From NCBI GenBank assembly GCA_049602055.1, contig JBMYRG010000013.1:12384-76383 (forward strand): a stretch of 64,000 nt of DNA. Direction: 5' to 3'. Origin of the DNA: Alphaproteobacteria bacterium. GTDB taxonomy: Bacteria; Pseudomonadota; Alphaproteobacteria; MPNO01; UBA2964. Below the pieces are notes generated by a model. That model saw only the letters and a list, made by a program, of their open reading frames with translations. It did not search any database and had not been told where the DNA came from. Position 1 is the first letter of the stretch. Every line of letters begins with the position of its first letter. Shown here one piece after another: positions 1 through 62,035 of the stretch. Position numbers and translations under genes: made by a program.

Positions 1-753
1 TATTTGGTGCCGACTATCTTTGGTCCCTGGTCAGAAGCCATGATTGACCATGCACGTACTGAAGAAAATCATCGACTTCTCGATGTTGGTTGTGGCAGTG
101 GCGCGGCCGCGCGCTATGCCGCCCAAATCGTGGGTACCGGCGGTTCAGTCTCCGCGATTGATTTCAATGCTGGCATGATCGCTCATGCCCGTACGCTTGA
201 TCCCAATAGGCGGATCGATTGGCAACAGGGCGATGTGACGGATATGCCCTACAACGATGGTGCCTTCGATATTGTGGCCGGCAATCAACTTTTGCAGTTT
301 CTCCCAGATAAAGAAAAGGGCTTATCTGAAATGAAGCGGGTACTAACAGACAAAGGACGGCTCGCATTAACAGTCTATTGCGCACCACATCGAAACCCCG
401 CCCATGCCGCGGTCGCCACGTCCCTGGAAAAACATGGCATCGATGCCAAAGGCGTTGTTCACCCGTTTTCTTTTGGTGACCCAGTAATGTTGGGTGACCT
501 TCTTCAGGATGCCGGCTTCAAAGATGTTTCTGTCGTTCGCAAACAGATGGATAGCTACTTCCCGTCGGCGGAGAACTTCATTGAATGTCTGGCTGCAGGG
601 GGACCATCCTCACGACACGCGCTCGAGCAGCTTGATGCTGACGGACTAAAGAGCCTGAAGGCTGAAGTGACGGAAACGCTCGCCGAATTCGTCGACCCTA
701 AAAAAGGTCTGCGCGTAATTACCGCCGCAAATATGGCACTGGCGTGCGCCTAA
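1..753 (+). CDS. Class I SAM-dependent methyltransferase (UbiE/COQ5-like); the 5' end is probably truncated by the window edge
   Basis: The ORF is open to position 1. It carries the SAM-binding motif LDVGCGSGAAA followed by the acidic loop IDFNAGMI. First Met in frame is at position 4. Confidence 0.75.
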   Translation, partial: YLVPTIFGPWSEAMIDHARTEENHRLLDVGCGSGAAARYAAQIVGTGGSVSAIDFNAGMIAHARTLDPNRRIDWQQGDVTDMPYNDGAFDIVAGNQLLQFLPDKEKGLSEMKRVLTDKGRLALTVYCAPHRNPAHAAVATSLEKHGIDAKGVVHPFSFGDPVMLGDLLQDAGFKDVSVVRKQMDSYFPSAENFIECLAAGGPSSRHALEQLDADGLKSLKAEVTETLAEFVDPKKGLRVITAANMALACA

Positions 754-1469
754 ATGGGATTTAATTTCGCTCTTTGAATCACTTTAGAGTATTGCATCGA
801 CAAGACATCAGAGGCGCTGTTCGTTCCGTTCGTGCAGGAATGGCACATATTCCAGCTACCCAACCGCGGTTCGTGAATGTCAAAAGCCTCGTGGAAATCT
901 TCAATTTCCTGCTGAGTCACCGGCGTCAATTGCGCGCCACCCAAAAACAGTTTCTGCATCATGTTATCATCGCCATTAGAGAGACGTTTGAGAATGGCAA
1001 GTGTTCCCCGATGATATCGATTTGCCCTTTCATAATGGGCGTTAACGCAGCACACCGGATATCCGAGAAGCTGCGCCTCTTCGGTCATCGACAGACGACC
1101 AGATGCTGCGTTTATACGACGCACGGACATCTCAACGGCATCATCCCTGTAGATATACCAGGCCCGATATGGCTCAAGCTGCGCCCGACTTTTCTCGGCA
1201 TACCATTCAGGAAATTCGCCATAGTCGGTGGCGTCCCAAAAGGGGCCCACAATAACGCGGAGCCCAAGGTCACCCGCGATTCCCAAAACCTCCTCAATCC
1301 AGATCGGCGGTGCCAGACCGCGTCCGTGCAGGAATACTGGCTTAATACCCTCTAACATGGCGAGAAAATCATGTATTTCCGCGACCAGCTCGCGTCGGTC
1401 TGCAGTGTCATCCTGCTTTTTTAAAAGCGCCGACAATTTTTGCCCGGTCTCGATAAGTACGCTTGTCAT
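750..1469 (-). CDS. Hypothetical protein (about 240 aa). The start was moved to the MTSVLIETGQ Met so it does not overlap the divergent tauD-like gene.
   Basis: Long minus-strand ORF 750..1688. The internal ATG at 1469 (MTSVLIETGQKL...) removes the overlap with the gene starting at 1570. I recognised no family. Confidence 0.4.
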   Translation of the reverse strand: MTSVLIETGQKLSALLKKQDDTADRRELVAEIHDFLAMLEGIKPVFLHGRGLAPPIWIEEVLGIAGDLGLRVIVGPFWDATDYGEFPEWYAEKSRAQLEPYRAWYIYRDDAVEMSVRRINAASGRLSMTEEAQLLGYPVCCVNAHYERANRYHRGTLAILKRLSNGDDNMMQKLFLGGAQLTPVTQQEIEDFHEAFDIHEPRLGSWNMCHSCTNGTNSASDVLSMQYSKVIQRAKLNPI

Positions 1470-1569
1470 AAGAAATTCTGATGAATTAGATTGTGCTACA
1501 CTCGCTGGAATCAGGTAAACCTTGCAGCTATAATAAAGCGACACAAGAAACTTCAGGATACAGGCAGCT

Positions 1570-2442
1570 ATGGCTAGCGTTTTAAAATCGCAAATCTCCT
1601 TTACGCCCCTATCAGGGGCGCTTGGCGCAAGGGTCACTGGTATCGACATCAGTAAGCCACTCAATGCAGAGACAGTCTCGCTCCTCACTCAGGCTTGGCA
1701 TGATCACATTGTCCTGATCTTCCCTGACCAGGACCTCACACAGGATCAACAGCTTACTTTCGCCCGAAATTTCGGAGATACCGGGACCCGGTCACGTCGT
1801 GCAGAAGAGCGCCCTGAAGGTGCCGATTACAATGCCGCCATAATGCTAGTTACCAATGTCAAAGATGAAACAGGCAAATATGTAGGCTCCTTGCCTGATG
1901 GCGAAATGTATTTCCATCATGACATGTGCTACATGCCCAAGCCCCATAAAGGCACCATGCTGTATGCTATCGACCTCCCCTCGACGGGCGGGAATACGCG
2001 CTTTTCCAATATGTACCGGGCTTATGAACAGATCCCCGAAGAACTAAAAAAGCAGTTGAAAGGCCGCACGGCATTGCAGGTCTATGATTATCACATGACA
2101 GAAACCGTCGACATTGATGGCGACCTGACGGGCATTCACAACAAGTCGCAACCAATCTTTGTCAGACATCCTGAGACCGGGCGGACGGCACTTTACGTCA
2201 ACAGGCTCATGACCGCTAAAATTGATGACATCCCTCGCGACGAAAGTGATGCAATTTTAGAGGAGCTTTATGCAATCAGCGAAGCGCCTGAAAACTATTA
2301 CGAACATGTCTGGACTAAGGGTGAATTGGCAATGTGGGACAATTACTGCTCCTGCCATGCGCGAACTGACTTCCCCGCCACAGAACGGCGGTTGCTGCGG
2401 CGCTGCACGCTTCTAGGCGAAGAAATGATCCCGGCAACCTAA
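1570..2442 (+). CDS. TauD/TfdA-family Fe(II)/2-oxoglutarate dioxygenase (paralog 1)
   Basis: The N-terminus has the 'GA..TGIDI' pattern. The iron-binding HHD is followed by 'DLPSTGGNTRFSNMYRAY', and the C-terminal motif is 'WDNYCSCHARTDF'. Length is about 290 aa. Confidence 0.85.
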   Translation: MASVLKSQISFTPLSGALGARVTGIDISKPLNAETVSLLTQAWHDHIVLIFPDQDLTQDQQLTFARNFGDTGTRSRRAEERPEGADYNAAIMLVTNVKDETGKYVGSLPDGEMYFHHDMCYMPKPHKGTMLYAIDLPSTGGNTRFSNMYRAYEQIPEELKKQLKGRTALQVYDYHMTETVDIDGDLTGIHNKSQPIFVRHPETGRTALYVNRLMTAKIDDIPRDESDAILEELYAISEAPENYYEHVWTKGELAMWDNYCSCHARTDFPATERRLLRRCTLLGEEMIPAT

Positions 2443-2479
2443 ATAGAGCCAAATTACTTTATCGAATAATGAGCCCCCG

Positions 2480-3337
2480 ATGACACTCACTATCACTCCG
2501 TTTGATGCACCGATTGGTGCCGAAGTAACCGGCATTGATTTGCGCAATACACTCGACAAACCCACTGTCGATAAAATTTATCAGGCTTGGTTGGATCATA
2601 TCGTTTTGATATTCCGGGGTCAGTCTTTGTCAAAGGACGAACAGGTTGCCTTCGCCAATCAATTTGGCGATGTCGGCATCAGGGCAACACCGAAGGAAGT
2701 ACAAAACGAGGTCGCCAACGGTTATGACGGCAGCATCATGCTGGTTACCAATCAGCGCGATGAAAACGGAAACTATATAGGCTCATTGCAGGACGGAGAA
2801 ATGTGGTTTCACCACGATATGAGCTATCGGCCGGAACCCCATAAAGCCACGTTACTCCATGCGCTTGAGCTGCCCTCCACTGGCGGCAACACTAAGTTCG
2901 CCAACCAGTATCTGGCCTACGAAAATATTCCCGATAACATCAAGGAACGGCTTCGGGGGCGCAAAGTCCTGCAAGCCTATAATTTTACGATGTTGGAAAA
3001 AGTCGACCTCGAAAAAGGTCTCGATGGCATTCAGCATCAATGGCAACCGATCTTTGTCAAACACCCGGAAACCGGGAAAACAGCTCTCTACGTCAGTCGT
3101 TTGATTTCTGCAGTGATCGAAGATCTTCCCCGAGAAGAAAGCGACGACCTCCTTGGCCAGCTGATCGAAATCGCCGAAGATCCAGCCGTGGTCTATGAAC
3201 ATGTCTGGCAGCAAGGCGACCTCGCGATGTGGGATAATCGGTGTTCAACTCATGCTCGAACAGACTTTCCTGCCGAAGAGACTCGCCTGTTACGGCGCTG
3301 CACCCTTGAAGGCGCCCCAATGATTGGGGCTGCCTGA
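2480..3337 (+). CDS. TauD/TfdA-family Fe(II)/2-oxoglutarate dioxygenase (paralog 2, tandem duplicate)
   Basis: About 50-55% identical to the previous ORF. It carries the same HHD...LPSTGGNTKF...WDNRCSTHARTDF motifs. It lies 37 bp downstream on the same strand. Confidence 0.85.
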   Translation: MTLTITPFDAPIGAEVTGIDLRNTLDKPTVDKIYQAWLDHIVLIFRGQSLSKDEQVAFANQFGDVGIRATPKEVQNEVANGYDGSIMLVTNQRDENGNYIGSLQDGEMWFHHDMSYRPEPHKATLLHALELPSTGGNTKFANQYLAYENIPDNIKERLRGRKVLQAYNFTMLEKVDLEKGLDGIQHQWQPIFVKHPETGKTALYVSRLISAVIEDLPREESDDLLGQLIEIAEDPAVVYEHVWQQGDLAMWDNRCSTHARTDFPAEETRLLRRCTLEGAPMIGAA

Positions 3338-3424
3338 TAACGAGACGGGGTTTCGCTATATCGGACTGAGTGATAGTTTTGCGCTAATTAATAACTCTTA
3401 AATAGGCGCAAGGAGACCCGGTTC

Positions 3425-4201
3425 ATGCCGACATTTGAATCCAACGGTGAACAAATCTTTTACGTGGATGAGGGCACCGGCCCGGCAATCCTGTTCATCC
3501 ATTCGCTCGGCACGAATAATTATCTCTATCGTGATCAGATCGCTGTCCTAAAGGCGGATTATCGTTGTATTGCTCCGGACTGTCGGGGACATGGTGCTTC
3601 TTCCTATAATGGTTCGTTCTCGCTAGAGGACATCGTCCAGGACCATAAAGCACTGCTCGATCACCTGAACATCGACAAATGCCATATCGTTGGACTCTCG
3701 ATGGGCGGCCCAATTGCCCTATGCCTAAACCAACTCAATCCTGATATCGCCCTATCGATGACCATTGCCGATAGTTTTGCGCGCCTTCGCGACGGCTCAG
3801 AAGACCGCATCTACGCTACGCAAGAGGCCGTCGCTTATCTCTCCATGCAGGAGTTTGGCAGCCAATATGCTGGAGACCGGCTGATGCCAACCACGCCGAT
3901 GGAAAAACTGGATGAGCTGGCCGAGGAAATCTCCAAGTGCCCACCGAAAGCTTACGTCGATACTATTCGGGGATTGCTAACCTATGATGCCAGTGGAGAT
4001 CTTTCCTTGGTGAGAGCGCCGACGATGGTGGTCATTGGAGATTCAGACGATGCGACACCGATGGCTGAATCTGAATTTATTCGCGACGGTATTGCTGGCT
4101 CGGAAATCAAAGTAATCCCCGATGCGGGTCATCTGTCAACAATCGATAGTCCGGAAGAATTTACAGCCGTCCTTAAAACGTTTCTTACCGCGCAGAGCTA
4201 G
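3425..4201 (+). CDS. Alpha/beta-fold hydrolase (3-oxoadipate enol-lactonase-like)
   Basis: Nucleophile-elbow motif GLSMGG, and an N-terminal 'ILFIHSLGTNNYLYRDQIAVL' typical of PcaD-like hydrolases. Length is 258 aa. Confidence 0.75.
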   Translation: MPTFESNGEQIFYVDEGTGPAILFIHSLGTNNYLYRDQIAVLKADYRCIAPDCRGHGASSYNGSFSLEDIVQDHKALLDHLNIDKCHIVGLSMGGPIALCLNQLNPDIALSMTIADSFARLRDGSEDRIYATQEAVAYLSMQEFGSQYAGDRLMPTTPMEKLDELAEEISKCPPKAYVDTIRGLLTYDASGDLSLVRAPTMVVIGDSDDATPMAESEFIRDGIAGSEIKVIPDAGHLSTIDSPEEFTAVLKTFLTAQS

Positions 4202-4219
4202 AGCTCACCAGGAGGGTAA

Positions 4220-5062
4220 ATGCCCAAGGTCCTAAGCGAAGAACAAGTAGCCGAGTATCACGAAAACGGGTTTGTGACCCCCGTCCCCATTTTCAATGCT
4301 GAGGAGGTAGCTGCTTGCCGTGCCAATGTCGAAGATACTGAAGCAACGATGGGCAAGTTTTTCCGTGGGCTGGGGCAGACTAAATTCTATCTTCGTTTTC
4401 CTTGGGCGTTTGAAATGGCGACCCATCCCAAACTGCTCGATGCTGTCGAAGACCTAATTGGTCCCAACATCATGATCTATCACAATACGGCGTGGATTAA
4501 GGAACCCAGCGATGACGCCTATGTTAGCTGGCATCAGGACAATACCTATTTCGGCCATGATCCCTGCGAGGTGTTAACAGCCTGGATTGCCCTGTCCCCC
4601 GCCACCGAGCAGAGCGGCTGTATGCAATTTCTCCCCGGGACGCAAAAGGGGGGACTTCGTGATTTAAAAGCGCCCGATATCGGCAATGGTAATATGCTAT
4701 CGAGTGGTCAAAACGTGGATATAAGCGGAGATAATATCGATCCGGTTTCGGTCGAACTACAGCCGGGCGAAGCCTCTATCCACCATGCCTTTCTTGTACA
4801 TGGTTCTCTGCCGAATAAAGGTGATGACCGGCGCATGGGCATTACCTTTATCTACCATCCGCCACATCTTGGTCAGATCGGGGAAGGCCGGACGAGCGCC
4901 TTACTTGTTCGCGGGGAGGACAGGTTTGGAAATTTTGATCACGAACAAGCGCCCGTGCCCGACGACGATGAGGGCAATGCTATTCGTCACGAACAGGCTG
5001 TTACTGCATATCGCAGGAAAGTCCGTGAACTTGGCAATGCAACAGTAGACCGTTTCGATTAA
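4220..5062 (+). CDS. Phytanoyl-CoA dioxygenase (PhyH)-family Fe(II)/2OG oxygenase
   Basis: Motifs 'WHQDNTYF' and 'HHAFLVHGSLPN' (HxD...H facial triad). Length is 280 aa. An RBS 'aggaggg' precedes the ATG. Confidence 0.75.
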   Translation: MPKVLSEEQVAEYHENGFVTPVPIFNAEEVAACRANVEDTEATMGKFFRGLGQTKFYLRFPWAFEMATHPKLLDAVEDLIGPNIMIYHNTAWIKEPSDDAYVSWHQDNTYFGHDPCEVLTAWIALSPATEQSGCMQFLPGTQKGGLRDLKAPDIGNGNMLSSGQNVDISGDNIDPVSVELQPGEASIHHAFLVHGSLPNKGDDRRMGITFIYHPPHLGQIGEGRTSALLVRGEDRFGNFDHEQAPVPDDDEGNAIRHEQAVTAYRRKVRELGNATVDRFD

Positions 5063-5064
5063 GG

Positions 5065-5910
5065 CTAGTCCGGTTCCGATACCGTATAGCGCCGTAACAA
5101 TCGACGTTGATCCGCTGGGAAATCATTGCGCGCGTGATTGACGCTACGATTGTCCCAAATCACTAAATCACCGGGTTTCCAGCTATGGGCGTAAACGAAT
5201 TCCGTCCTCTCGCAGTGATCAAACAAAGATAGCAACAGGTCTTCGCTTTGTTCGTCATCCATGCCGACAATGTTGCAAGTCATTAATCGACTGACATAAA
5301 GCGATTTTCGTCCTGAATCAGGATGCACCTTTACCAGCGGGTGAATTGCATGGGAGACATCGTCATCGCGCCGCATCTCCTCACGCGTCGTCTTGTTGTA
5401 ATTGAAAACGTGTCGTGCCTCTAGCGTGTCGAGCAGTCCCCGTTGAGCTTCCGGTAGAGCCTCGTACGCAGCGGCCATCCCCGCGAACTTGGTTTCTCCA
5501 CCGACTGTTGGGACCTCGATGGCAAACAGAGTCGTTGCACGATAAGGCTTGTCGCGATGGGCACCATCCGAATGAAAATGCATTTCGCCATCTGGCAACA
5601 CGCCAATCGGCTTTCCATCCTCGCGAATATTGCTGACAAACATCACGCCGCGTTTGGATTGCTTGTTGTCAGGATCTTCTTTGGTCCGGTCAGCCGTATC
5701 AGCTCTGCCAAACAAAGCCGCAAAATCCGCCTGATTGTCGTTTGTGATCTCTTGCCCCGGGAAACACAGAACAGAATGTTCCGTAAAGGCCTCGCGAATT
5801 TGTTGCGCCATGTCTTCGCTAATCGGATCACGCAAATCGACCCCTGTCACGCGCGCCCCGACAGCAGGATGTACAGGTTTCACTGTCAATTTTGAGACCA
5901 CAGTAGCCAT
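5065..5910 (-). CDS. TauD/TfdA-family Fe(II)/2-oxoglutarate dioxygenase (paralog 3)
   Basis: Same motif set as the other paralogs (HSD...VPTVGGETKF...WDNRSVNHARNDF). The start is placed at MATVVSKL (5910), which has an upstream GAGGGA RBS. The ORF track extends it to 5934. Confidence 0.8.
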   Translation of the reverse strand: MATVVSKLTVKPVHPAVGARVTGVDLRDPISEDMAQQIREAFTEHSVLCFPGQEITNDNQADFAALFGRADTADRTKEDPDNKQSKRGVMFVSNIREDGKPIGVLPDGEMHFHSDGAHRDKPYRATTLFAIEVPTVGGETKFAGMAAAYEALPEAQRGLLDTLEARHVFNYNKTTREEMRRDDDVSHAIHPLVKVHPDSGRKSLYVSRLMTCNIVGMDDEQSEDLLLSLFDHCERTEFVYAHSWKPGDLVIWDNRSVNHARNDFPADQRRLLRRYTVSEPD

Positions 5911-6135
5911 AGTTCCCTCACCCGACTTCAACACGCACTGTTCTGCGCAACAATCAAAATACTAACCCGCTTTTAACAGTAAAACCCAGCGCTGCGATCA
6001 ATTTTCCCCTCATTTTTTTCCGTCATTCCGGGTTAACAGCGCGGTTTTGTTCGTCTAAGCTGATATCCGCGCAATATCGTAAAGGCCCTAAAAATTAATT
6101 ATCGGGGCAAATGAAACTAAAGGGAGGTATTTTTT

Positions 6136-7140
6136 ATGTTTAGTAAAATTTTGACTGGTGCAGTCGCCTTGAGTGCGGTTGCAATGGTTGCTGCTGTGCC
6201 AGCACAGGCGCAGAAATTTCCAAAGAAGAATATTACATTCCTGATCGCCTATGGTCCTGGCGGTGGTTTTGACACCATCACCCGTAAGCTCGCACCATAT
6301 TTGAAAAAACATCTTGGCGGTAAGGTCAATATTGTTCCGAAGAACCTGCCCGGTGGACGTGGCAAGAAAGCCGCTGCCTTCCTTGCAAAACGTAAGGCCG
6401 ACGGTTCGCACATCATGATGTTCAACATGCCCGGTCATGCCATGCCGAATATTATCGGTGAAGAAGCCGGTTATGATGTCCGTAAGATGGATTGGTTGGG
6501 TCGTGTCGCCCAGTTCCGTTACATCATTGTCGTCAGTGCCAAAAAGAGTAAATACCAGACGATCCAGGATGTGTTGAAAGCCAAAGATCAGATCAAAATT
6601 CCGATCACAGGCCCCGGCACAACGGGTTATCTCGCCAGCGCCATTCTTTGGAATGCCCTTGGCGTTCAACCAAAATACATCACCGGCTATAAATCAAGCT
6701 CGCGTTATTCGCTTGGTGTTATCCGCGGCGATGGCGATCTGACAATTCTGGCCAAAGGCAGCTTCAAAAAGTATGTCAGCAGCAAAAAGAAAAAGCAGGC
6801 TGCCTTTAAGGACCTGAAGCCAATCCTCGAGATCACCAACGGCAAGTCTGAGTTCGGTGTCCCGACAACTGGTGAAATGGGCCAGAAGGATCTTGCGATC
6901 CTCGGTGGTGATCGAGTTATCGGCACAACACCAGGGACCCCTAAAGCCATCAAGGACCGGTTGGCCAAAGCGGTTTGGGATTCAGTGACTGACCCGGAAT
7001 TCGTAGCCTGGGGTAAAAAGGTCGGTCGTCCGGTTGCACCTTTGAACGCCGCAGACGCGACGAAACTGGTTGGTCAACTTTACTCGTACTACGTCCAATA
7101 CAAGGATGTTCTTGCCGCGAGTAACAAGAAGACCAGATAA
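6136..7140 (+). CDS. tctC: Tripartite tricarboxylate transporter substrate-binding protein (TctC/Bug family)
   Basis: Signal peptide, then 'KFPKKNITFLIAYGPGGGFDTITR...NLPGGRGK...', which is characteristic of the TctC/Bug family. RBS is AAGGGAGG. Length is 334 aa. Confidence 0.85.
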   Translation: MFSKILTGAVALSAVAMVAAVPAQAQKFPKKNITFLIAYGPGGGFDTITRKLAPYLKKHLGGKVNIVPKNLPGGRGKKAAAFLAKRKADGSHIMMFNMPGHAMPNIIGEEAGYDVRKMDWLGRVAQFRYIIVVSAKKSKYQTIQDVLKAKDQIKIPITGPGTTGYLASAILWNALGVQPKYITGYKSSSRYSLGVIRGDGDLTILAKGSFKKYVSSKKKKQAAFKDLKPILEITNGKSEFGVPTTGEMGQKDLAILGGDRVIGTTPGTPKAIKDRLAKAVWDSVTDPEFVAWGKKVGRPVAPLNAADATKLVGQLYSYYVQYKDVLAASNKKTR

Positions 7141-7153
7141 ACTGTTGTTATCA

Positions 7154-7188
7154 ACGGCCGGTGCGCAAGCATCGGCCGTTTCCTTTCC
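7154..7188 (+). terminator. Rho-independent terminator or attenuator between tctC and tctA
   Basis: An 11-bp GC-rich stem (acggccggtgc / gcatcggccgt, with one G-U pair) and a GCAA tetraloop, followed by TTTCCTTTCC. Confidence 0.55.
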
Positions 7189-7286
7189 GCGCACACAACA
7201 AAACAGGCACATCAAGTGTGTGTGTGCGTGCGGACATTTCTGACAGACTTATAAGGCTAAGTTGATCACAGGGGGCAGAGAAATCC

Positions 7287-8798
7287 GTGTTTGATGCATT
7301 GTTTGAAGGAATCGTTAATCTCGGTTCCATCCATTCTCTATTGCTGTTGGCAGCCGGATCAGCGGTTGGATTATTATTTGGCGCCATCCCTGGCCTCGGT
7401 GGCACAACAGCCGTTGCACTCCTCATTCCACTGACCTTCGGCATGGAACCCTGGCAGGCCATCATTTTGATGGGTGGCGTTATGGCAGCCACATCCACTG
7501 GCGGGTCCGTCAGTGCCATTCTTCTAAACACGCCCGGCATTGCCCCGAATGCCGCCACGACTTTTGATGGCTACCCCTTAGCCCAACAGGGCAAAGCTGG
7601 CATGGCCATCGGTGCCGCGGCAACGGCTTCTGCCATGGGTGGCGTCATTGGCGTCATTTCACTAGTGGCAGTGATTCCGATCATGAAAGCGATCGTGCTT
7701 TTGTTCACCCCACCTGAATTTTTTATGCTGGCGATTTTTGGCATGTGCGCCATCGCGGTCTCGTCAGGAGACCGACTACTTCAAGGCCTGATTACCGCGA
7801 TCATTGGATTGATGGTCGGCTTTGTCGGTTATTACGATGTCACCAGTACCGTCCGATTTGACTTTGGTATCCCGCTCCTGGAGGATGGGATTAAATTAGT
7901 TCCGGCCCTGATCGGGCTCTTCGCCATTTCCGAAATGATCAACCTCGCCGTCAAAGGTGGCTCCATTTCTCAGGAAGCGGCAGATGTCGAGATCAGCGGT
8001 GTTTCCTCCGGTATCAAGGAAGTTTTCAAAAACTGGTCAACCACGCTCGTCGGCTCTGGCTATGGCACCTTTATTGGCGCCGTTCCCGGTGTCGGCGGTA
8101 CCGTCGCCGCCTTCCTGAGCTATTCAACCCAGGCCCAGCGCGACCCGACTCCCGATATCGAATACGGCAAGGGTAATATCAAAGGCGTGATCGCTCCCGA
8201 ATCTGCCAATAATGCGAAGGATGGGGGATCGTTGATCCCAACACTTGCCTTTGGTATTCCGGGGAGTGCGGAAACCGCCGTATTCCTCGGCGTTCTCATT
8301 TTACACGGTATCGAACCCGGACAAAAACTCCTGGAAGACCATCAGGATCTGGTCTTCACGCTGGTTGTTGCCCTTACAGTCTCGGCGATTTTCGCGACAA
8401 TTGTTGTTCTCCTATTAGCGAAGTATATGGCGTTGCTGACCCGGATCAGTGTTCATATGCTGATCCCAACCGTGACCGTCGTGGCGCTGGTTGGTGCCTT
8501 CGCCCTTAACACCGAAATCGGCGATGTCGTCATCGCGTTCATCTTTGCCTTTATCGGCTATTTTATGATCCGGTTTAACTATCCGCGGGTTACTTTTACA
8601 ATCGCCATCGTTCTTGGCAGTATCACCGAGCTGAGCTTCCATCAGTCGATGCTCATTTCTGACGATCAAATGTCGATCTTCTTTACGAGAGGGCTATCGC
8701 TCACATTGCTTGCTCTGACGATTTTGAGCCTCGCCTTCCCAACCTTCAGACGAAAGATGAAAGAAAGAAAAGAAGCTAAAATGGAGGCCGGACAATGA
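7287..8798 (+). CDS. tctA: Tripartite tricarboxylate transporter large permease (TctA family)
   Basis: 503 aa polytopic membrane protein. Gly-rich repeated 'PGLGGT / PGVGGT' motifs are typical of TctA. Confidence 0.9.
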   Translation: MFDALFEGIVNLGSIHSLLLLAAGSAVGLLFGAIPGLGGTTAVALLIPLTFGMEPWQAIILMGGVMAATSTGGSVSAILLNTPGIAPNAATTFDGYPLAQQGKAGMAIGAAATASAMGGVIGVISLVAVIPIMKAIVLLFTPPEFFMLAIFGMCAIAVSSGDRLLQGLITAIIGLMVGFVGYYDVTSTVRFDFGIPLLEDGIKLVPALIGLFAISEMINLAVKGGSISQEAADVEISGVSSGIKEVFKNWSTTLVGSGYGTFIGAVPGVGGTVAAFLSYSTQAQRDPTPDIEYGKGNIKGVIAPESANNAKDGGSLIPTLAFGIPGSAETAVFLGVLILHGIEPGQKLLEDHQDLVFTLVVALTVSAIFATIVVLLLAKYMALLTRISVHMLIPTVTVVALVGAFALNTEIGDVVIAFIFAFIGYFMIRFNYPRVTFTIAIVLGSITELSFHQSMLISDDQMSIFFTRGLSLTLLALTILSLAFPTFRRKMKERKEAKMEAGQ

Positions 8799-9298
8799 GA
8801 ATACCCGAGCACAGAAGGCCTTCAGCACTTTATATTCTCATAATTCTAGCTATCGTCGTCCTGTTTATCGCCACAAGCTATCAGTACAAAGTTACTGATC
8901 GGATGTTTCCGTTGATGGTGGGATATTTTGCCATACCACTCTTGATCATGGATTTACTTGCCCTGACCGATAGTAAGGTTGGCGAAAAAATTTCAATTTT
9001 CTTTTCCGCCAAGACGCCGGAAAAGGTCGATGAAGATGCCGATCCAACCGTCCGCACGCTGTCACAGGAACTTAGGATCTTTATGTGGATGGGTGCCCTT
9101 GTCCTGGGTATTTATCTGATTGGCTTTTTGCCCTGCACGCCGGTCTTTGTTTATTGCTGGATGAAATATCGCGGCGGATATTCTGTACGCGAGAGTGCCT
9201 ATCTGGCGATCGGCACCATCGTATTCGTCTACGTCCTGTTCGAAATAATTCTGCAGTACGAATTATATCCGGGCATCTTCCTGTACTGGTACGGCTGA
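8795..9298 (+). CDS. tctB: Tripartite tricarboxylate transporter small permease (TctB-like)
   Basis: 167 aa protein with four TM segments. It overlaps the tctA stop with an ATGA arrangement, which suggests translational coupling. Confidence 0.65.
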   Translation: MRIPEHRRPSALYILIILAIVVLFIATSYQYKVTDRMFPLMVGYFAIPLLIMDLLALTDSKVGEKISIFFSAKTPEKVDEDADPTVRTLSQELRIFMWMGALVLGIYLIGFLPCTPVFVYCWMKYRGGYSVRESAYLAIGTIVFVYVLFEIILQYELYPGIFLYWYG

Positions 9299-9326
9299 GC
9301 GGGCGGCATATCGCGCGCCGTCCGAG

Positions 9327-10871
9327 TTACCCCCAGGGTTCAAGGGCAGCCGCCTGTTTTCCCGCAATTTGGCCCGTCACAAGACACTCTGCGAGATTGC
9401 CGCCAGACATATAGAGATGCCCCCAGGCACTACCCATTTCACCCGCCGCGTAAAGGCGCGGAATGGGATTGTCCTCCACATCGATAATGCGTTGCTGCGC
9501 ATCATGTTCCGGGCCACCCTGGGTATTTGAGACCACCGGCCAGACTTGCCCGGCATAGAATGGCGCACGCTGAATTTTCATCATCGTGCCGGACGGGCGC
9601 CCGAAATCGACATCGTTCTTGGTGGAGCAGAGTTCATTCCATCGGGCCAGTGTCGCTTCAAGCTCACCTGCTTCCATATCGATCATCGCCGCCAACTCAG
9701 CGATTGAATCCGCCTTTTTGATCAGTCCGGACTCGATCTCCTGCATATTGTCGAGGCTCCAGTCATAATGGGCATCGGGATCATTCCGGGTCGGCGCACC
9801 AACCCGATAACGTCGGCGACCAACCTCATCGAAAATCACGTAGGACGGAATACGCGGAAATTCCTGTGTCACGGGATCGAAATGTTCCATCGGCCGGTGC
9901 GACGTATCCTGGGTATAAGGTGGGTTCTCGTTCATATAGCGCTTGCCGAACTTATCGACGACGATCCACGTCATCTGAACAACGGCGGTTTGCTCGCGAC
10001 CGGGAATCCAGTCCGGCAGACGCTTCATACGAATAGCGTAAGGATATTCGGGATGCTCAAACCCGTATGATCCATGATAGTGCCACATATGCCAAAGCCG
10101 GGCGCCAAGCTCCTGCGCCATACGGATACCATCACCAGTGTTTGAATTCGTCGTCGCCGCGAGGACCGGCTTCATTTGCCAGTACTGCCGCTTCATTTCT
10201 TCGTTTGCTTCAAAGCCACCGCAGCAAAGGATCACGGCTTTGCTGGCCTTCACAGTCCGAACACCGCCGGTTGTCTGGATAACGGCGCCCTGAACTTCGC
10301 GTGTGCCATCGGTTTTATAAATCAGTCTCTGAACCGGCGCTTCGAGCCAGATATCGATATCCCGCAACGCGACATTGTCTTCCAGAGTTTTAAACACCCG
10401 AGCCCCGCCGGGAGCGCCCCGGACATGCGGGTAGTGACTATCAGGGTCAAAGTTCGGGATTTCCTCAATCAGCGTTTGGTAGAACGTGTCATATCCTTCA
10501 AACGGGTAGTTCGCGACCTTCTGACGCGGATTTACGATGGCCCCATTGGCTTCTGCCAGCTTCCGCATATAGGCCTCGATATTGGCCATCCCGTCGGCAA
10601 GGGCGCGGTTCACGGATGACGGTGTGCGCCCACCATTCGTCGCTTCGAGATATTTAAAGGCCTGATCTGCGTCATGCGCCGAGCGCATCGCACCGTAAGA
10701 GCAAACAGAAATACCCCCGGGATTGGCCATTTTATCGACCAGCAGAACTTTCGCACCGGCATCAAACGCCTCAATCGCCGCTATGCCGCCGGAATAGCCA
10801 TATCCAACGACAATTACGTCATATTCGGCGTCGAAATTGACAGTCTCGTTGGTAGCCGAATTGTCTGCCAT
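9327..10871 (-). CDS. FAD-dependent dehydrogenase (FAD_binding_2; fumarate reductase / 3-ketosteroid dehydrogenase-like flavoprotein)
   Basis: The N-terminus has the dinucleotide-binding motif 'YDVIVVGYGYSGGIAAIEA...AKVLLVDK'. The C-terminus has 'LYAAGEMGS...GGNLAECLVTG', typical of this flavoprotein family. Length is 514 aa. Confidence 0.8.
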   Translation of the reverse strand: MADNSATNETVNFDAEYDVIVVGYGYSGGIAAIEAFDAGAKVLLVDKMANPGGISVCSYGAMRSAHDADQAFKYLEATNGGRTPSSVNRALADGMANIEAYMRKLAEANGAIVNPRQKVANYPFEGYDTFYQTLIEEIPNFDPDSHYPHVRGAPGGARVFKTLEDNVALRDIDIWLEAPVQRLIYKTDGTREVQGAVIQTTGGVRTVKASKAVILCCGGFEANEEMKRQYWQMKPVLAATTNSNTGDGIRMAQELGARLWHMWHYHGSYGFEHPEYPYAIRMKRLPDWIPGREQTAVVQMTWIVVDKFGKRYMNENPPYTQDTSHRPMEHFDPVTQEFPRIPSYVIFDEVGRRRYRVGAPTRNDPDAHYDWSLDNMQEIESGLIKKADSIAELAAMIDMEAGELEATLARWNELCSTKNDVDFGRPSGTMMKIQRAPFYAGQVWPVVSNTQGGPEHDAQQRIIDVEDNPIPRLYAAGEMGSAWGHLYMSGGNLAECLVTGQIAGKQAAALEPWG

Positions 10872-10972
10872 GATCCCTCACCTGCTCGATTTTTTTGTGA
10901 AACGCATTTTGCCTCAGCCTCTATAGCCGCGCAACTGCACGACGCTGCCTCGCATCAGATGGATCTTTGGCT

Positions 10973-11938
10973 TTATTCAGCAGACGCTAGCTGCGGTCGT
11001 GATTCATTGTAGCGCTGTGTCGAATGCTCACCGGCAGTACAAGGCGGAAACATCGGCGTATCGCCGGGCGTTATACATGTCGGGAGGCATTCAACATGTG
11101 TGTCATGTACGTGATTGAAAAACAGCACTATCGAATGACGATTTTTCTGAGAACGATTGTTCATAACGCGATGGAGGCTCGAATGATACTGACCATTGGT
11201 CCAGCGCAACATGATATCACCGAGATTCACCACAAATGTCCCCGGAATAGGCTCAACCCTTACCCATTCGCCGGAAGCTGTTTCAACTTCGAGCCCGCCC
11301 AGCGAGTCCTGGGACAAGAGTGTGATCCAGCCCCAGTCCGTATGGGCCCCACACCCGAGTTGGTTAAACTCCGTTTCTGCAGGATGAGGCGGATATCGCA
11401 GAATGCGAAGTGGCGATTTTTGTTGCGCGAAGGTGTCATCAAAATGATCGAACGGCATCCCAAGTGACAGAGAGATTAACCGCGACACCTGCAAACCCGC
11501 CTGCCAGACGGCTTCTTTATAGGCTTCAAGTCTTTCGCGAAAACCTGGAAAATCCTCCGGCCAAATATTGGCCTTATAGCCTGGAGTCCCCGGAATATTG
11601 CCCATGGTAAAATTGAAAGACTCTTTGATATCACCGGGCGATTCATTATCCAGACGTTGTGTTTCAGGAGGTTCGTAACCGTTTGAAAAACCTTGTTTTA
11701 TCCACTTTTCTTTCCAGCTATCCGGCTCATCAAAAAACCTGTTGGCCTCCGCAAAAGCGCCATCGATAAGTGTTTGATCAACCCCATGGTTGGAAATATA
11801 GAAAAATCCGGTATTCCGACAGGCTGCTTTAATTTCAGCAGCTATTGCTTCCCGAGCGGTGGGATCACCGGAAAAACTTGGGCCAATATCAATAACCGGA
11901 AGATCGCCTGCCTTCTTGGGCTCGGAGTAGATGATCAT
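10973..11938 (-). CDS. 2OG-Fe(II) oxygenase, isopenicillin-N-synthase-like (DIOX_N plus 2OG-FeII_Oxy)
   Basis: N-terminal 'LPVIDIGP...' box, then the 'HTDWGWITLL...LEV' HxD...H triad region, and the C-terminal RxS motif region. Length is 321 aa. Confidence 0.75.
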   Translation of the reverse strand: MIIYSEPKKAGDLPVIDIGPSFSGDPTAREAIAAEIKAACRNTGFFYISNHGVDQTLIDGAFAEANRFFDEPDSWKEKWIKQGFSNGYEPPETQRLDNESPGDIKESFNFTMGNIPGTPGYKANIWPEDFPGFRERLEAYKEAVWQAGLQVSRLISLSLGMPFDHFDDTFAQQKSPLRILRYPPHPAETEFNQLGCGAHTDWGWITLLSQDSLGGLEVETASGEWVRVEPIPGTFVVNLGDIMLRWTNGQYHSSLHRVMNNRSQKNRHSIVLFFNHVHDTHVECLPTCITPGDTPMFPPCTAGEHSTQRYNESRPQLASAE

Positions 11939-11949
11939 CTGTCAGCTCC

Positions 11950-12963
11950 TCATTCCTGATATGGTATACCCGCCGCCTGCATCGCTTTCATCTGCGACCA
12001 CGTATCCCTGATCCATTGCCCACAGGCTGCATTTTGTTCAAGCAGAGAAAATTTCGCGCCCATGCCGTAATCCGACGTCGCGATCATTTCCGTAATCACA
12101 TATTGCAGCGGACTGGTTTCATGGGTGAGATGATAGCGCAGAATTTTGCGAAAAGCTTCCTTGCAGACATCCAACTTGTAAGCTGACCATGGGGAATGCC
12201 ATTCACCTGGCGCGGGCTTCGTAAAGGGATACATAATCCCGCGGGGCCTTGAACCATCCGGGTTTGTCCCCCAGATATTTCGAGGGTTGTTGGGAATGAC
12301 CGGTCGGAACTGAGCAAAATGGACGGCATCCAACGCCATCCATTCTTCACAAAGATTGCCGGGCTCATAGGGATCCAGAACGATCCGCCCCTCTTCGACA
12401 TCCTCGCGAACATCAGAGACTTCCTGCTGCTCAGGATTGTCAATTTTGAAAATCACATGGCTGTAATCGACGGTAAAATGGAAGGGGATTCCACGCGCCT
12501 GAACCGCCTGCACGATTGGTGTCACGCGCTTGTATTTTTCACTCCAGCAATCGACATGCAGCTCAAAACTGAGGGCGACCCCAACGGAATCGCCTATCTC
12601 CGCCGTTCGGATGTAGGTATCGATAATTTCATCATCCGTCAGCTCATGCCCATCTGCCGCGTAGGTACCAAGCATAATATTAAGCATTTTTACGTCGGCC
12701 CGCGCGGCATCCTGCATTCTTTCAGCGAGCAATTCGTCATTGCGGCCAAGCTGGTGAATATAATTTCCCGTCAGCATCGGAATGTCAGTTTTTTCCGCAG
12801 CAGAAACAGCGTCTTTCAACTGATCCGGTTGCGGCAGCCAGTTGATGTAATCAAAAACCCCGGTATCCCGCACCATCCTGAACCGTTCTAACGGTTCGAC
12901 TACAACATCAGCCTGCAGGATATTGTAGGTACACCCGAGTTGAAAATCGGCAGCCATGATCAT
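11950..12963 (-). CDS. Hypothetical protein, possibly a xylose-isomerase-like TIM-barrel (sugar-phosphate isomerase/epimerase) fold
   Basis: 337 aa ORF with acidic/His-rich segments ('FELHVDCWSE', 'FHFTVDYSHV'), reminiscent of metal-dependent TIM-barrel enzymes. This is weak. Confidence 0.35.
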   Translation of the reverse strand: MIMAADFQLGCTYNILQADVVVEPLERFRMVRDTGVFDYINWLPQPDQLKDAVSAAEKTDIPMLTGNYIHQLGRNDELLAERMQDAARADVKMLNIMLGTYAADGHELTDDEIIDTYIRTAEIGDSVGVALSFELHVDCWSEKYKRVTPIVQAVQARGIPFHFTVDYSHVIFKIDNPEQQEVSDVREDVEEGRIVLDPYEPGNLCEEWMALDAVHFAQFRPVIPNNPRNIWGTNPDGSRPRGIMYPFTKPAPGEWHSPWSAYKLDVCKEAFRKILRYHLTHETSPLQYVITEMIATSDYGMGAKFSLLEQNAACGQWIRDTWSQMKAMQAAGIPYQE

Positions 12964-13109: not shown

Positions 13110-14588
13110 ATGAGTGCGGCGTCAGGAAGTAACATTGCAGGTCAAATTGCCTATGAAGATTTGCGCGAATGGTTGGTCTTAGCCGACCGTCTTGGCGAGG
13201 TAGAATATGTAAAGGGTGCCAACTGGCAGGAAGATATCGGCCTTGCTGCAGAAGCTGTACTACGTGAGGAGAATGGCCCCTGCGTTGTATTTGAAGATGT
13301 CGAAGGATGCCCCAAGGGTTTCCGCATGCTAATGAACATGTTCGCCGGTACGCGGCGAAATATGACGCTGGGTTTTCCGGAACATCTGACCAAATGGGAA
13401 CTTTCCAACGCTTATCGTGAAAACTATCTCATCGATCCGAAAGTCATCAAACATGAGATCGTCGATGATGGCCCCGTTTTTGAGAACATCCTGACGGGCG
13501 ACGATATTGACGTCACCAAATTTCCGGCCCCCGTCTGGCATGAGAATGATGGCGGACGCTATATCGGTACCGGCACCTACAGCGTAACACGCGACCCCGA
13601 AGAAGGCTGGCTCAATGCCGGCGCTTATCGGGCGCAGGTTCATGGCCCGAAAGAAGTCGGTTTCCTGACGGCACGTGGACATCACGGCTATATCCACCGC
13701 GAGAAATACAAGGCGCAGGGCAAAAAGATGCCGGTCTGCATGGTTCTAGGCGGTGATCCGCTAGCCTTCTATTTCGGTGGTACCGAAGCACCCTACGGTG
13801 CCTTTGAGCTCGATATCGTCGGGGGCCTGCGCGGCAAACCCTTGCAGCTTGTTGAAGGTAAAGTCACTGGCCTGCCCTTCCCCGCCAATGCCGAAATCGT
13901 GCTGGAAGGTTATGTCGATCCGCAGGAAACCATTATCGAAGGGCCTTTTGGCGAATGGACCGGCCATTATGCTGGCGGCAAGGAACCGCGGACGGTTCTC
14001 CGCATTGAAGCCATTTATCACCGAAACGACCCCATCCTGCTCGGCGTACCGCCGATGGGCCAAGGCCCGGATGAACTGGCGCGCTATCGTGCTGTGATGC
14101 GCTCTGCGATGCTTAAACAAAATATTATTGATGCCGGTGTACCGGACATCCAGCAGGTCTGGTGCCACGAAACCGGCGGCTCCCGGATGCTCCATGGGGT
14201 GTCGATTAAACAACGTTATCCCGGTCATTCACGTCAGGCTGGTCAAATCGCGGCGCAGTGTCGTGCAGCCGCCTATGCCTCAAAATATGTCATCGTGACG
14301 GATGAAGATGTCGATGTGACACGACTCGACCAACTTATCTGGGCTATGATGGTCAGGACCGACCCCAAGCGGTCAATCGACTTTATCAGCGGCGCCTGGG
14401 ATTCCCCCGCCGACCCCATGCTGACACCAGAGCAACGGGCCGTTGGCGATATGACCCATTCCGTCGCCATCATTGATGCGTGCCGTCCGTTCGAATGGAT
14501 GGACCAGTTTCCGATGTCAAACGCCCCAAGCCCGGAAGTGGCACGAAAGGCAGAAGAAAAGTTTGGCTATCTGATGAAGAACCGCTAG
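13110..14588 (+). CDS. UbiD-family (prenylated-FMN-dependent) decarboxylase, paralog A
   Basis: 492 aa protein with the UbiD hallmark layout: an N-terminal 'LREWL..A..LGE' box, then '..DGGRYIGTG..VTRDPE..W.N.G.YR.QV', and the conserved E(x)nE cofactor region. About 50% identical to the ORF at 24469..25962. Confidence 0.85.
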   Translation: MSAASGSNIAGQIAYEDLREWLVLADRLGEVEYVKGANWQEDIGLAAEAVLREENGPCVVFEDVEGCPKGFRMLMNMFAGTRRNMTLGFPEHLTKWELSNAYRENYLIDPKVIKHEIVDDGPVFENILTGDDIDVTKFPAPVWHENDGGRYIGTGTYSVTRDPEEGWLNAGAYRAQVHGPKEVGFLTARGHHGYIHREKYKAQGKKMPVCMVLGGDPLAFYFGGTEAPYGAFELDIVGGLRGKPLQLVEGKVTGLPFPANAEIVLEGYVDPQETIIEGPFGEWTGHYAGGKEPRTVLRIEAIYHRNDPILLGVPPMGQGPDELARYRAVMRSAMLKQNIIDAGVPDIQQVWCHETGGSRMLHGVSIKQRYPGHSRQAGQIAAQCRAAAYASKYVIVTDEDVDVTRLDQLIWAMMVRTDPKRSIDFISGAWDSPADPMLTPEQRAVGDMTHSVAIIDACRPFEWMDQFPMSNAPSPEVARKAEEKFGYLMKNR

Positions 14589-16157: not shown

Positions 16158-16168
16158 GGAACACAAAA

Positions 16169-16951
16169 ATGTCTGACAACAATACCTACGCTGAATACGA
16201 CAACTTCATGGGACGCTGGAGCCGTCAAGTGGCGAGCCAATTCCTTGATTGGATTCAGCCCGGGCAGAATTTAAGTTGGCTCGACGTCGGTTGCGGTGCC
16301 GGAATGTTGGCGCAAACTGTCGCCAGAAATTGCGCGCCCTCGATTGTCACTGGAGCCGACCCTCTGGAAAAATCCATTACTGCCGCAAAACAACACCCGG
16401 ATAACAAGGGTATTCGATTTGAGGTTGGCGATGCTCAAGATCTGCCGTTCGAGGATTCCACGTTCGATGCGGTCGTTTCGGGCCTCATGATCAAATTCGT
16501 ACCCAACAAAGTAAAAGCAATTGGCGAGATGAAACGCGTGGCCCGTCCCGGTAGCGTCATTGCCCTCTATGACTGGGATATGGATAGCAACATGAACACG
16601 ACGCGGCACTTCTGGGGAGCTGTTGCAGACATCATCCCAGAGCGTATGGAGGATCGGGCCACCAACCGAACACCAATGACCGAAATCGATTCAATTGCCC
16701 AAATATTTGAAGCGGCAAGCGTAACGAAAGTTCAGCAAAACACCATTTCCTTTACGACCCAGTTCCGGGATCTCGAAGATTACTGGCAACCAATTACCAA
16801 AAACTCACAAAATGTCGGCCGATTTTACCAAACGATGACGGAAGATCAGCGTAATGCCGTCCGCGAGCGGCTAAAACAAACCCTGCCCTTCGCCAAAGAC
16901 GGCTCTATTTCCTTTGAAAGCCGCGCTGTTGCGGTAAAAGGTCTCGCCTAG
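16169..16951 (+). CDS. Class I SAM-dependent methyltransferase
   Basis: Motif 'LDVGCGAGMLAQ'. The start is set at MSDNNTY (16169), which has a GGAA RBS. The upstream ATG at 16139 would overlap the ligase gene. Confidence 0.75.
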   Translation: MSDNNTYAEYDNFMGRWSRQVASQFLDWIQPGQNLSWLDVGCGAGMLAQTVARNCAPSIVTGADPLEKSITAAKQHPDNKGIRFEVGDAQDLPFEDSTFDAVVSGLMIKFVPNKVKAIGEMKRVARPGSVIALYDWDMDSNMNTTRHFWGAVADIIPERMEDRATNRTPMTEIDSIAQIFEAASVTKVQQNTISFTTQFRDLEDYWQPITKNSQNVGRFYQTMTEDQRNAVRERLKQTLPFAKDGSISFESRAVAVKGLA

Positions 16952-41528: not shown

Positions 41529-41544
41529 ATGACGGAGATAGTCA

Positions 41545-42009
41545 ATGACTGCGAATAGTGACGAAACATTGACCCAACTTGGTGCCCATACGCCGATGCC
41601 GGCATCTCCAGAAGAAGCGGTATTGGAGCGGGTCAGCAATCCACAAACGGGTACGATGTATCTCGCGAGGTTTACCTGCCCGGAATTCACCAGCCTGTGC
41701 CCGGTTACCGGCCAGCCCGATTTTGCTCATCTGGTTATCGACTACGCGCCGAACGAATGGATTGTCGAAAGCAAGTCCTTAAAGCTTTTTCTTGGGTCAT
41801 TCAGAAATCACGGTGCTTTTCATGAAGATTGTACGGTCGGCATTGCAAAACGGCTTGAAGAATTACTGTCACCACATTGGTTAAGGATTGGCGGTTATTG
41901 GTATCCGCGGGGCGGTATGCCGATAGACGTGTTCTATCAAAATGGCCATCCGCCCGCTGATCTGTGGATTCCGGATCAAGGCGTCTCTACCTATCGCGGG
42001 CGCGGGTGA
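41545..42009 (+). CDS. queF: NADPH-dependent 7-cyano-7-deazaguanine (preQ0) reductase, type I
   Basis: '[24 protein letters not shown]' contains the catalytic Cys and QueF motif. Length is 154 aa. Confidence 0.85.
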
Positions 42010-51797: not shown

Positions 51798-51800
51798 CTT

Positions 51801-62030: not shown

Positions 62031-62035
62031 TAACC

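Follow-up and report, generated by a model that had tools for sequence, protein, structure and literature searches.

The first 12,963 positions of a 64,000-nucleotide stretch of DNA from Alphaproteobacteria bacterium (assembly GCA_049602055.1, contig JBMYRG010000013.1, positions 12,384 to 76,383 of the forward strand; hereafter the window) hold a dense cluster of genes for Fe(II)/2-oxoglutarate (2OG) oxygenases around a complete tripartite tricarboxylate transporter (TTT) system. The host is an uncultured marine alphaproteobacterial lineage, Rhodospirillaceae-like. We see about an even chance that this cluster is the core of a catabolic island, conserved in the lineage, that breaks down imported organic acids. 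The most likely substrates would then be aromatic carboxylates with ether, alkoxy or side-chain substituents. Three distinct 2OG-oxygenase families lie within 11 kb in an order that is kept across species, which exceeds a chance arrangement. TauD1 and TauD2, at 57% identity, are products of a tandem duplication and therefore do not represent independent events.

Five oxygenase genes surround a TTT importer

An open reading frame (ORF) map combined with profile searches recovered all genes named in the earlier note on this DNA, with Pfam scores that are mostly far over the curated cut-offs. That note had counted six Fe(II)/2OG dioxygenases. The families it named are correct, but positions 1-12963 contain five such genes, three of the TauD/TfdA type, one PhyH and one isopenicillin N synthase (IPNS)-like gene, and the sixth lies about 50 kb off. 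The genes named there are real and intact, whereas two further ORFs, unk239 and unk337, had been left undescribed. The features of the cluster, its right-hand extension and the opposite window edge are as follows.

4-753 (+): MT1, class I S-adenosylmethionine methyltransferase (Pfam Methyltransf_11/25/31); 5' end cut by the window start
750-1469 (-): unk239, 239-aa orphan; no Pfam or PDB sequence match
1570-2442 (+): TauD1, TauD/TfdA dioxygenase, first of a four-gene run (PF02668, 207.5 bits)
2480-3337 (+): TauD2, tandem paralog of TauD1 (PF02668, 200.1 bits)
3425-4201 (+): alpha/beta-fold serine hydrolase (Abhydrolase_1/6)
4220-5062 (+): PhyH-family Fe(II)/2OG hydroxylase (PF05721, 97.1 bits; cut-off 22)
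5065-5910 (-): TauD3, divergent paralog, convergent with PhyH and divergent from tctC (PF02668, 219.4 bits)
6030-6061 (+): conserved promoter-like footprint 5' of tctC (alignment with related genomes)
6136-7140 (+): tctC, periplasmic solute-binding protein (PF03401, 35.7 bits; cut-off 27)
7287-8798 (+): tctA, large TTT membrane component (PF01970, 433 bits)
8795-9298 (+): tctB, small TTT membrane component (PF07331, 45.6 bits)
9327-10871 (-): FAD_binding_2 flavoprotein (PF00890, 134.6 bits)
10973-11938 (-): IPNS-like 2OG oxygenase (PF14226, DIOX_N, 92.7 bits; PF03171, 2OG-FeII_Oxy, 93.8 bits)
11950-12963 (-): unk337, divergent xylose-isomerase-like TIM barrel, 337 aa (weak PF01261 match)
13110-14588 (+): UbiD1 (Pfam), right-hand extension of the conserved block
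14607-16157 (+): acyl-CoA ligase (Pfam), right-hand extension of the conserved block
16139-16951 (+): MT2, methyltransferase (Pfam), right-hand extension of the conserved block
62632-63162: small cupin gene adjoining the fourth TauD (Cupin_2)
63260-64000 (-): fourth TauD/TfdA gene, cut by the window edge; ligands retained in the translation

Contigs identical to the window were found in several marine metagenome assemblies; in those numbered L001-L006, full-length MT1 has 270 aa. MT1 and MT2 are 32% identical across a 122-residue segment only. The fourth TauD/TfdA gene, which the earlier note had placed at the other window edge, was confirmed there, truncated by that edge. It forms a locus of its own some 50 kb away and does not belong to the cluster.

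The TauD/TfdA paralogs retain their catalytic residues and differ from the characterised enzymes

Membership of the TauD paralogs in this family is secure, as the PF02668 matches of TauD1, TauD2 and TauD3 reach 200-219 bits against a cut-off of 27 and cover profile positions 2-267. The earlier note had raised the possibility that the paralogs lack the iron-binding triad. Alignment to TauD from the E. coli K-12 genome speaks against this: the iron and 2OG ligands are retained in all paralogs, and H99, D101, T126, H255, R266 and R270 of TauD are invariant in four of four window paralogs. In TauD, R270 binds the anionic group of the substrate.

For comparison with further characterised enzymes, the sequences of TfdA, RdpA and the putative 2,4-dichlorophenoxyacetate (2,4-D) dioxygenase 5j92 were rebuilt from printed PDB alignments. 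The window paralogs are mutually 38-57% identical and share 27-35% identity with E. coli TauD, TfdA, RdpA and 5j92. TauD1 shares 57% identity with TauD2 and 27-28% with the four references; TauD3 shares 38-40% with the other paralogs and 32-35% with TfdA, RdpA, TauD and 5j92; the fourth TauD is 38-47% identical to the other window paralogs. As the identities to the reference enzymes do not exceed 35%, no substrate can be assigned, and the earlier statement that the substrate cannot be named from the sequence was upheld. The phylogeny that had been proposed for the paralogs was made as a small neighbour-joining (NJ) tree with these four reference sequences. The window paralogs fell outside the TfdA+5j92 and TauD+RdpA pairs (bootstrap 35-68%), and none of them grouped with a characterised enzyme.

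In PDB searches, an RdpA-type entry, (R)-phenoxypropionate dioxygenase, headed the matches of all three complete paralogs; TauD followed closely, and TfdA ranked among the first ten to twelve hits. The structures of RdpA, TauD, TfdA and PlaO1 occupied one score band (1e-25 to 1e-40). The paralogs are of the short TauD/TfdA type, with 18-28 bits for the best BBOX/TMLH-type model, and did not reach the taurine dioxygenase equivalog NCBIfam NF007104 (144.4, 148.6 and 169.5 bits versus 313). Among the plasmids in PLSDB, no TauD homologue exceeded 38% identity, and the matches were annotated generically. Four relatives (L007, L008, L009 and L012) carry a third tandem TauD between TauD1 and TauD2, where the window has a gap of 37 bp; this third copy (at 13479-14321 in L007) is 53-56% identical to TauD1 and TauD2.

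With TfdA and RdpA/SdpA the window paralogs thus share the PF02668 fold family, the H-x-D...H triad, the Thr/Arg 2OG ligands and the C-terminal Arg, and with about 280-290 aa they are similar in size. In contrast, they are just 28-35% identical to TfdA and RdpA and group with neither in the NJ tree, no tfd-type chlorophenol or chlorocatechol genes occur near the cluster, and the cluster is chromosomal, belongs to a marine uncultured lineage and is linked to a TTT importer. Compared to E. coli TauD of the tauABCD system, the paralogs are of the same family and match it at every metal, 2OG and Arg270 position, whereas the identity is 27-32% and the equivalog cut-off is missed. Furthermore, several paralogs are present here, they have aromatic-catabolism neighbours, and no TauABC-type ABC transporter lies beside the three clustered ones.

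TauD3 relatives recur next to TTT genes at independent loci

The TTT set of the cluster is complete, with tctC, tctA and tctB in adjacent genes and tctA and tctB overlapping by 4 bp. At the N-terminus of TctC, a hydrophobic segment reads as a signal peptide by eye. TctC is divergent: its PF03401 match is weak, its best PDB matches are BugD (1.2e-12) and Bug27 (1.6e-11), and it matched no NCBIfam model. TctA, on the other hand, is 91-97% conserved in relatives. All three component types of the TctCBA, Bug and TphC-TpiBA systems are encoded here too, the last being the terephthalate TTT system of Comamonas, and like other aromatic-acid TTT systems the window importer is set beside catabolic genes. 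It differs from the known systems in its gene order C-A-B and in its very divergent TctC.

The leader of tctC (6078-6135) contains a conserved 5-bp hairpin, GCYCC...GGRGC, with covariation at two of its pairs among 10 sequences. The 5' arm (CUCC) also complements GGGAGG, the Shine-Dalgarno sequence that follows, and the hairpin could be a small translational control element, although the indications for this are weak.

Conservation of the cluster was followed in a synteny scan with one genome per species, the relatives being metagenome-assembled genomes (MAGs) labelled Alphaproteobacteria, Rhodospirillaceae, Rhodospirillales or Pseudomonadota. The gene order from MT1 through MT2 was kept in nine of 11 species-level genomes of this lineage (L007-L009, L011, L012, L014, L015, L018 and L054); the remaining two (L010 and L013) are short contigs that are compatible with it. 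The degree of conservation varies between genes. UbiD1, TctA and the flavoprotein are 86-97% conserved, with UbiD1 at 92-94% in all syntenic genomes, while TauD3, MT1 and unk239 fall as low as 47-70%; across the 11 related genomes, TauD3 identity is 69-95%. The IPNS-like gene and unk337 are both absent in L018, where about 290 bp separate the flavoprotein gene from UbiD1, and unk337 is confined at this position to the window, L007 and L008.

An independent set consisted of 42 non-syntenic loci from other alphaproteobacteria, each with a TauD3 relative 50-70% identical to TauD3. A TTT component was located within 5 kb of the TauD3 relative in 12 of these. The commonest neighbour family was a divergent TctC-like binding protein, which occurred at eight loci and was centred about 1 kb away; TctA was near in five. 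UbiD genes were likewise found near five TauD3 relatives, four times as a 553-aa type and once as the two genes of L017. In this locus, from a different Rhodospirillaceae MAG, the order is VOC-family gene, TauD3 relative (62%), FMN-dependent dehydrogenase, FAA-family hydrolase, TauD, TctA, TctC-like gene and two UbiD genes. Other TauD3-relative loci carry Amidohydro_2, a FAD_binding_3 flavoprotein (aromatic-ring hydroxylase family) or SDR genes. This recurring re-association of TauD3 relatives with TTT genes is the best argument that TauD3-type enzymes act on TTT-imported acids.

Further enzymes of the cluster

In the PhyH protein, W104-H105-Q-D107 can be read from the translation, followed by His188/189/194 and Arg204/205, with the distal His not fixed by a structural alignment. 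Its HxD motif corresponds to the predicted hydroxylase form and not to the HxA/G form of halogenases. Among PDB entries it comes closest to 6zyk, an uncharacterised monooxygenase (2.5e-30), for which a literature search on PDB 6ZYK returned only unrelated results. The IPNS-like protein has both domains as well as H199-x-D201, H256 and R267-x-S269; a reconstructed ancestral ethylene-forming enzyme (9ovh, 9e-53) is its best PDB match, followed by 6jyv. Judged by these motifs, the 2OG oxygenases of the cluster look catalytically competent.

The serine hydrolase carries a GLSMG nucleophile motif, then Asp and His. Its best NCBIfam model is TIGR02427, PcaD, the 3-oxoadipate enol-lactonase of the beta-ketoadipate pathway. 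The hydrolase keeps the Ser nucleophile motif of PcaD and aligns with it nearly end to end, but with 149.8 bits against a cut-off of 255.85 it is no PcaD equivalog, and no pcaBCIJF genes are located nearby. The flavoprotein, which has a GxGxxG motif, also remained under all NCBIfam cut-offs (flavocytochrome c 184.6, KstD 182.1, TcuA 141.1 and vinyl phenol reductase 123.4 bits). It is probably of the flavocytochrome c/KstD/TcuA type and may carry out C-C desaturation or ene reduction.

The conserved block extends into aromatic-acid genes on both sides

The range 1-12963 given in the earlier note proved too narrow, as the conserved block runs on into UbiD1, the CoA ligase and MT2 on the right and into dihydrodipicolinate synthase (DHDPS)-family, bicupin and UbiD genes on the left. 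The best PDB match of UbiD1 is PhdA, the phenazine-1-carboxylate decarboxylase (7PDA, 1e-98, nearly full length), which suggests decarboxylation of an aromatic or heteroaromatic acid. At the same time, UbiD1 stays under every NCBIfam equivalog cut-off and adjoins the range 1-12963 rather than falling in it.

Right of MT2 follow a thiamine pyrophosphate (TPP) enzyme, a major facilitator superfamily (MFS) transporter, a second UbiD gene, a GST and a VOC-domain protein. UbiD2 (24469-25962, -) is 52% identical to UbiD1. Left of the window, the identical contig L001 carries a third UbiD (3429-4832), a MarR regulator, a bicupin, an HpaI/DapA-like protein and a CnbZ-like 2-aminomuconate-type deaminase (374 bits versus a cut-off of 220). 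The left-hand continuation was seen in L015 with a DHDPS-family gene, a bicupin and a UbiD gene, and the MarR gene in L001 and L088. Three UbiD-family decarboxylase genes thus lie within about 35 kb; a gene for UbiX, the prenylated FMN synthase, was not recognised in the window.

As UbiD genes, the bicupin, the CnbZ-like deaminase and the PcaD-like hydrolase surround the cluster, an imported aromatic carboxylate is a more probable substrate than a sulfonate or betaine. The window showed no sulfonate ABC transporter and no Ssu genes. The earlier note had proposed an oxidative pathway for an imported carboxylate or sulfonate, from which the carboxylate persists as the best reading while the sulfonate and betaine options found no support.

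A possible route for imported aromatic acids

If the cluster acts on such carboxylates, the acid would be bound in the periplasm by TctC and brought in by TctAB. The TauD/TfdA-type dioxygenases would then grip the anionic group of the substrate via the conserved Arg (R270 in TauD numbering) and hydroxylate the carbon adjoining the heteroatom, giving an unstable product that breaks down. Aryloxy-acid cleavage by TfdA and RdpA proceeds in this way, by hydroxylation beside the heteroatom and subsequent collapse of the product. The tandem TauD paralogs probably serve related substrates or stereoisomers. The PhyH and IPNS-like oxygenases may add more hydroxylations or demethylations, the PcaD-like serine hydrolase could open an ester or lactone, and the flavoprotein may alter side-chain saturation. 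Finally, the aromatic core would be passed to the adjacent UbiD decarboxylase and CoA ligase and to the bicupin and aldolase-like genes left of the window.

A more far-reaching version, which we regard as unlikely, is that the block encodes an undescribed route of a widespread, uncultured marine alphaproteobacterial family, in which ether- or alkoxy-substituted aromatic acids are taken up by a dedicated TTT system, cleaved by new TauD/TfdA subfamilies and then processed by UbiD and bicupin ring cleavage, with unk239 as a new accessory protein. Lignin, algal phenolics or humic-like dissolved organic matter could be the source of such acids. We had also considered breakdown of homarine or trigonelline by UbiD and N-demethylating TauD enzymes; this candidate was dropped, as the literature gave no support.

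To specialists, the cluster is an unsurprising, uncharacterised version of a familiar type of catabolic cluster, and it overturns nothing established. TauD/TfdA-like genes are plentiful in marine and soil alphaproteobacteria, and to our knowledge the natural substrate has been established for almost none of them. A conserved, compact and importer-linked cluster with three subfamilies outside TauD, TfdA and RdpA is therefore a reasonable lead to the natural substrates of TfdA-like enzymes and to a new TTT ligand. Literature searches on TauD, TTT and marine bacteria returned nothing relevant, and those on TfdA-like enzymes in alphaproteobacteria nothing useful.

Transcription units and alternative explanations

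The single co-regulated unit that the pathway of the earlier note would imply was not found. By orientation, the genes fall into at least six units: unk239; TauD1-TauD2-hydrolase-PhyH; TauD3; tctCAB; unk337-IPNS-flavoprotein; and UbiD1-ligase-MT2. Within the TauD1-TauD2-hydrolase-PhyH run the gaps measure 37, 87 and 18 bp, and unk239 diverges from the TauD1 operon across a gap of 100 bp. Intergenic alignments over 11 genomes (the window and 10 relatives) revealed three conserved promoter footprints. The one upstream of tctC (6030-6061), GGGTTAACAG-N7-TTGTTCGTCTAAGCT, occurs once in the window; in it, GGGTTAACA is invariant and the downstream half almost so, while other spacer sequence diverges. 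Upstream of TauD1, the footprint is of the TATAAT type (GCTGGAAT-N17-TATAAT), and upstream of UbiD1 it consists of a CTTGC...CCATGnAAAAGTCC block. A promoter scan gave promoter-like counts no greater than in shuffled sequence, and terminator-like counts were slightly above those in shuffled sequence and mostly within genes.

Several points weigh against a common catabolic pathway for aromatic acids. The genes are spread over at least six transcription units, and the three conserved footprints are of unrelated sequence. The six intergenic regions yielded three common 9-mers at chance level and no palindromes as candidates for a shared operator, no Rfam match reached the gathering threshold in the whole window (the best hit in the tctC leader, E=0.6, is meaningless), and no regulator gene was seen in 1-27 kb, the MarR gene lying outside the window. 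Co-regulation of the cluster units is thus neither shown nor excluded. In the same genomes, synteny also runs past both ends of the cluster; with the flanks conserved too, gene order within the lineage does not by itself prove functional linkage and may reflect inheritance rather than selection for linkage. The adjacency of TauD3 relatives and TTT genes at 12 of 42 loci stands without a genomic baseline, alphaproteobacteria can have very many TTT binding proteins, and the neighbour clustering rested on a crude calling of longest ORFs that included spurious ones in high-GC loci. With at most 35% identity to the four references and weak NJ support, the chemistry of the paralogs can be suggested at the level of the family only. 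TctC resembles no binding protein of known ligand, and no ligand could be assigned to it by similarity. Lastly, the flanking bicupin matches the gentisate and 5-aminosalicylate 1,2-dioxygenases weakly (74-81 bits versus cut-offs of 442-650).

These observations leave room for a functionally unconnected, paralog-rich neighbourhood, in which tandem duplication and inherited synteny have brought the genes together and each handles its own compound, with no single pathway; we consider this possible, if doubtful. The number of transcription units with their convergent and divergent junctions, the three differing footprints with no common operator and the equally conserved flanks are consistent with it. 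So are the window-wide expansions (TauD four times, UbiD twice and once more just outside, methyltransferase twice, EamA nine to ten times) and the accessory turnover of the third tandem TauD, the IPNS-like gene and unk337. However, such a neighbourhood does not readily account for three distinct 2OG-oxygenase families together with a hydrolase and an importer inside 11 kb, for the operon-like spacing of the TauD1-TauD2-hydrolase-PhyH run or for TauD3 relatives that rejoin TTT and UbiD genes in unrelated arrangements.

Another unlikely option is that the substrates are non-aromatic carboxylates of marine dissolved organic matter, for instance alicyclic or terpenoid-like compounds or carboxyl-rich alicyclic molecules, which would undergo hydroxylation at unactivated C-H bonds and ring desaturation by a KstD-like flavoprotein. 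KstD and 4-oxocyclohexanecarboxylate dehydrogenases are among the sub-cut-off matches of the flavoprotein, TauD1, TauD2 and PhyH weakly match the pentalenolactone enzymes PtlD and PtlH, and a CoA ligase and a TPP enzyme are close by. Yet all matches of the KstD, PtlD and PtlH type are far under the family cut-offs, the UbiD genes are nearest to aromatic or heteroaromatic acid decarboxylases, and the flanking bicupin and CnbZ-like genes indicate aromatic rings.

We regard it as very unlikely that the cluster serves sulfur scavenging or the breakdown of organosulfonates or sulfate esters, with the TauD paralogs freeing sulfite or sulfate like TauD and AtsK. The paralogs belong to the TauD family, TauD from E. 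coli and other sources and AtsK were among the PDB matches (1e-18 to 1e-36), the conserved R270 could hold a sulfonate, and SlcHFG has been described as a TTT system for sulfolactate uptake. On the other hand, the taurine dioxygenase model was clearly missed (144-170 bits versus 313), and the scanned window genes included no recognisable TauABC/SsuABC-type transporter, SsuD/E, sulfite exporter or sulfite dehydrogenase. Decarboxylases and genes of the ring-cleavage type adjoin the cluster instead, and sea water is rich in sulfate, which makes scavenging unlikely. A biosynthetic tailoring cluster, whose oxygenases, methyltransferases, CoA ligase and UbiD would modify a small molecule for export through the neighbouring MFS or EamA proteins, would fit the tailoring-type matches (TauD-like PlaO1, PtlD and ScoE, PhyH-like SnoK/SnoN, UbiD-like BagN/FevL) and the many putative exporters, but is highly improbable given that the window shows no polyketide synthase, nonribosomal peptide synthetase, terpene synthase or other gene for building a scaffold, that the central transporter is an importer dependent on a solute-binding protein and that the flanks carry catabolic genes.

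Two accessory proteins and other features of the window

The orphan unk239 has relatives in 27 clusters among 5.8 billion proteins (word-indexed search), and a profile search of 1.84 billion representatives (50% clustering) gave 215 proteins at E <= 0.001. Four Cys in the motifs GYPxCCV and SxNxCxxC are invariant, as are several His. The AlphaFold (AF2) model has a pLDDT of 93.4 and no Foldseek match in the PDB, and the predicted structure may represent a new metal-binding fold. Two more distant homologues adjoin methyltransferase, DHDPS, bicupin and MarR genes or MarR, EmrAB-like and DHDPS genes, and not TauD, which indicates that unk239 goes with the left-hand module and not with the TauD operon. 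A role of unk239 as regulator of the cluster was rejected, since it lacks a helix-turn-helix domain and its homologues accompany the methyltransferase/DHDPS/bicupin module.

For unk337, no Pfam match was obtained at first; some homologues carry PF01261 and some are named 'xylose isomerase' by NCBI. We had considered it as a sixth oxygenase and rejected this, as it is a xylose-isomerase-like TIM-barrel protein and an accessory gene.

Beyond the cluster, the TPP enzyme (-), whose longest ORF starts with GTG at 18754, overlaps head to head with the MFS transporter (+), whose longest ORF starts with TTG at 18747, and probably at least one true start of the pair lies further in. Two adjacent ORFs, 20817-22157 (+, 446 aa) and 22242-23528 (+, 428 aa), have no Pfam match at E<0.01. 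EamA/DMT transporters form a swarm of about ten ORFs in the 64 kb, two of which overlap (nine to ten genes), at 23525-24466, 26108-27010, 27708-32970, 38331-39248 and 48389-49360. The six tandem or overlapping EamA ORFs at 27708-32970 (-) coincide with a strong AT-skew peak at 28-32 kb.

At 50472-52999 (+), a DUF1800 gene is followed by the overlapping ORFs 51801-52388 and 52307-52999, which correspond to the N- and C-terminal parts of DUF1501; the split may be due to a frameshift or an assembly error. The queuosine genes queA, tgt, a queF-like gene and queG lie together at 39361-43142 (+), and a separate queC adjoins a putative vitamin/precursor transporter of the Vut_1 family at 61305-62620 (+).

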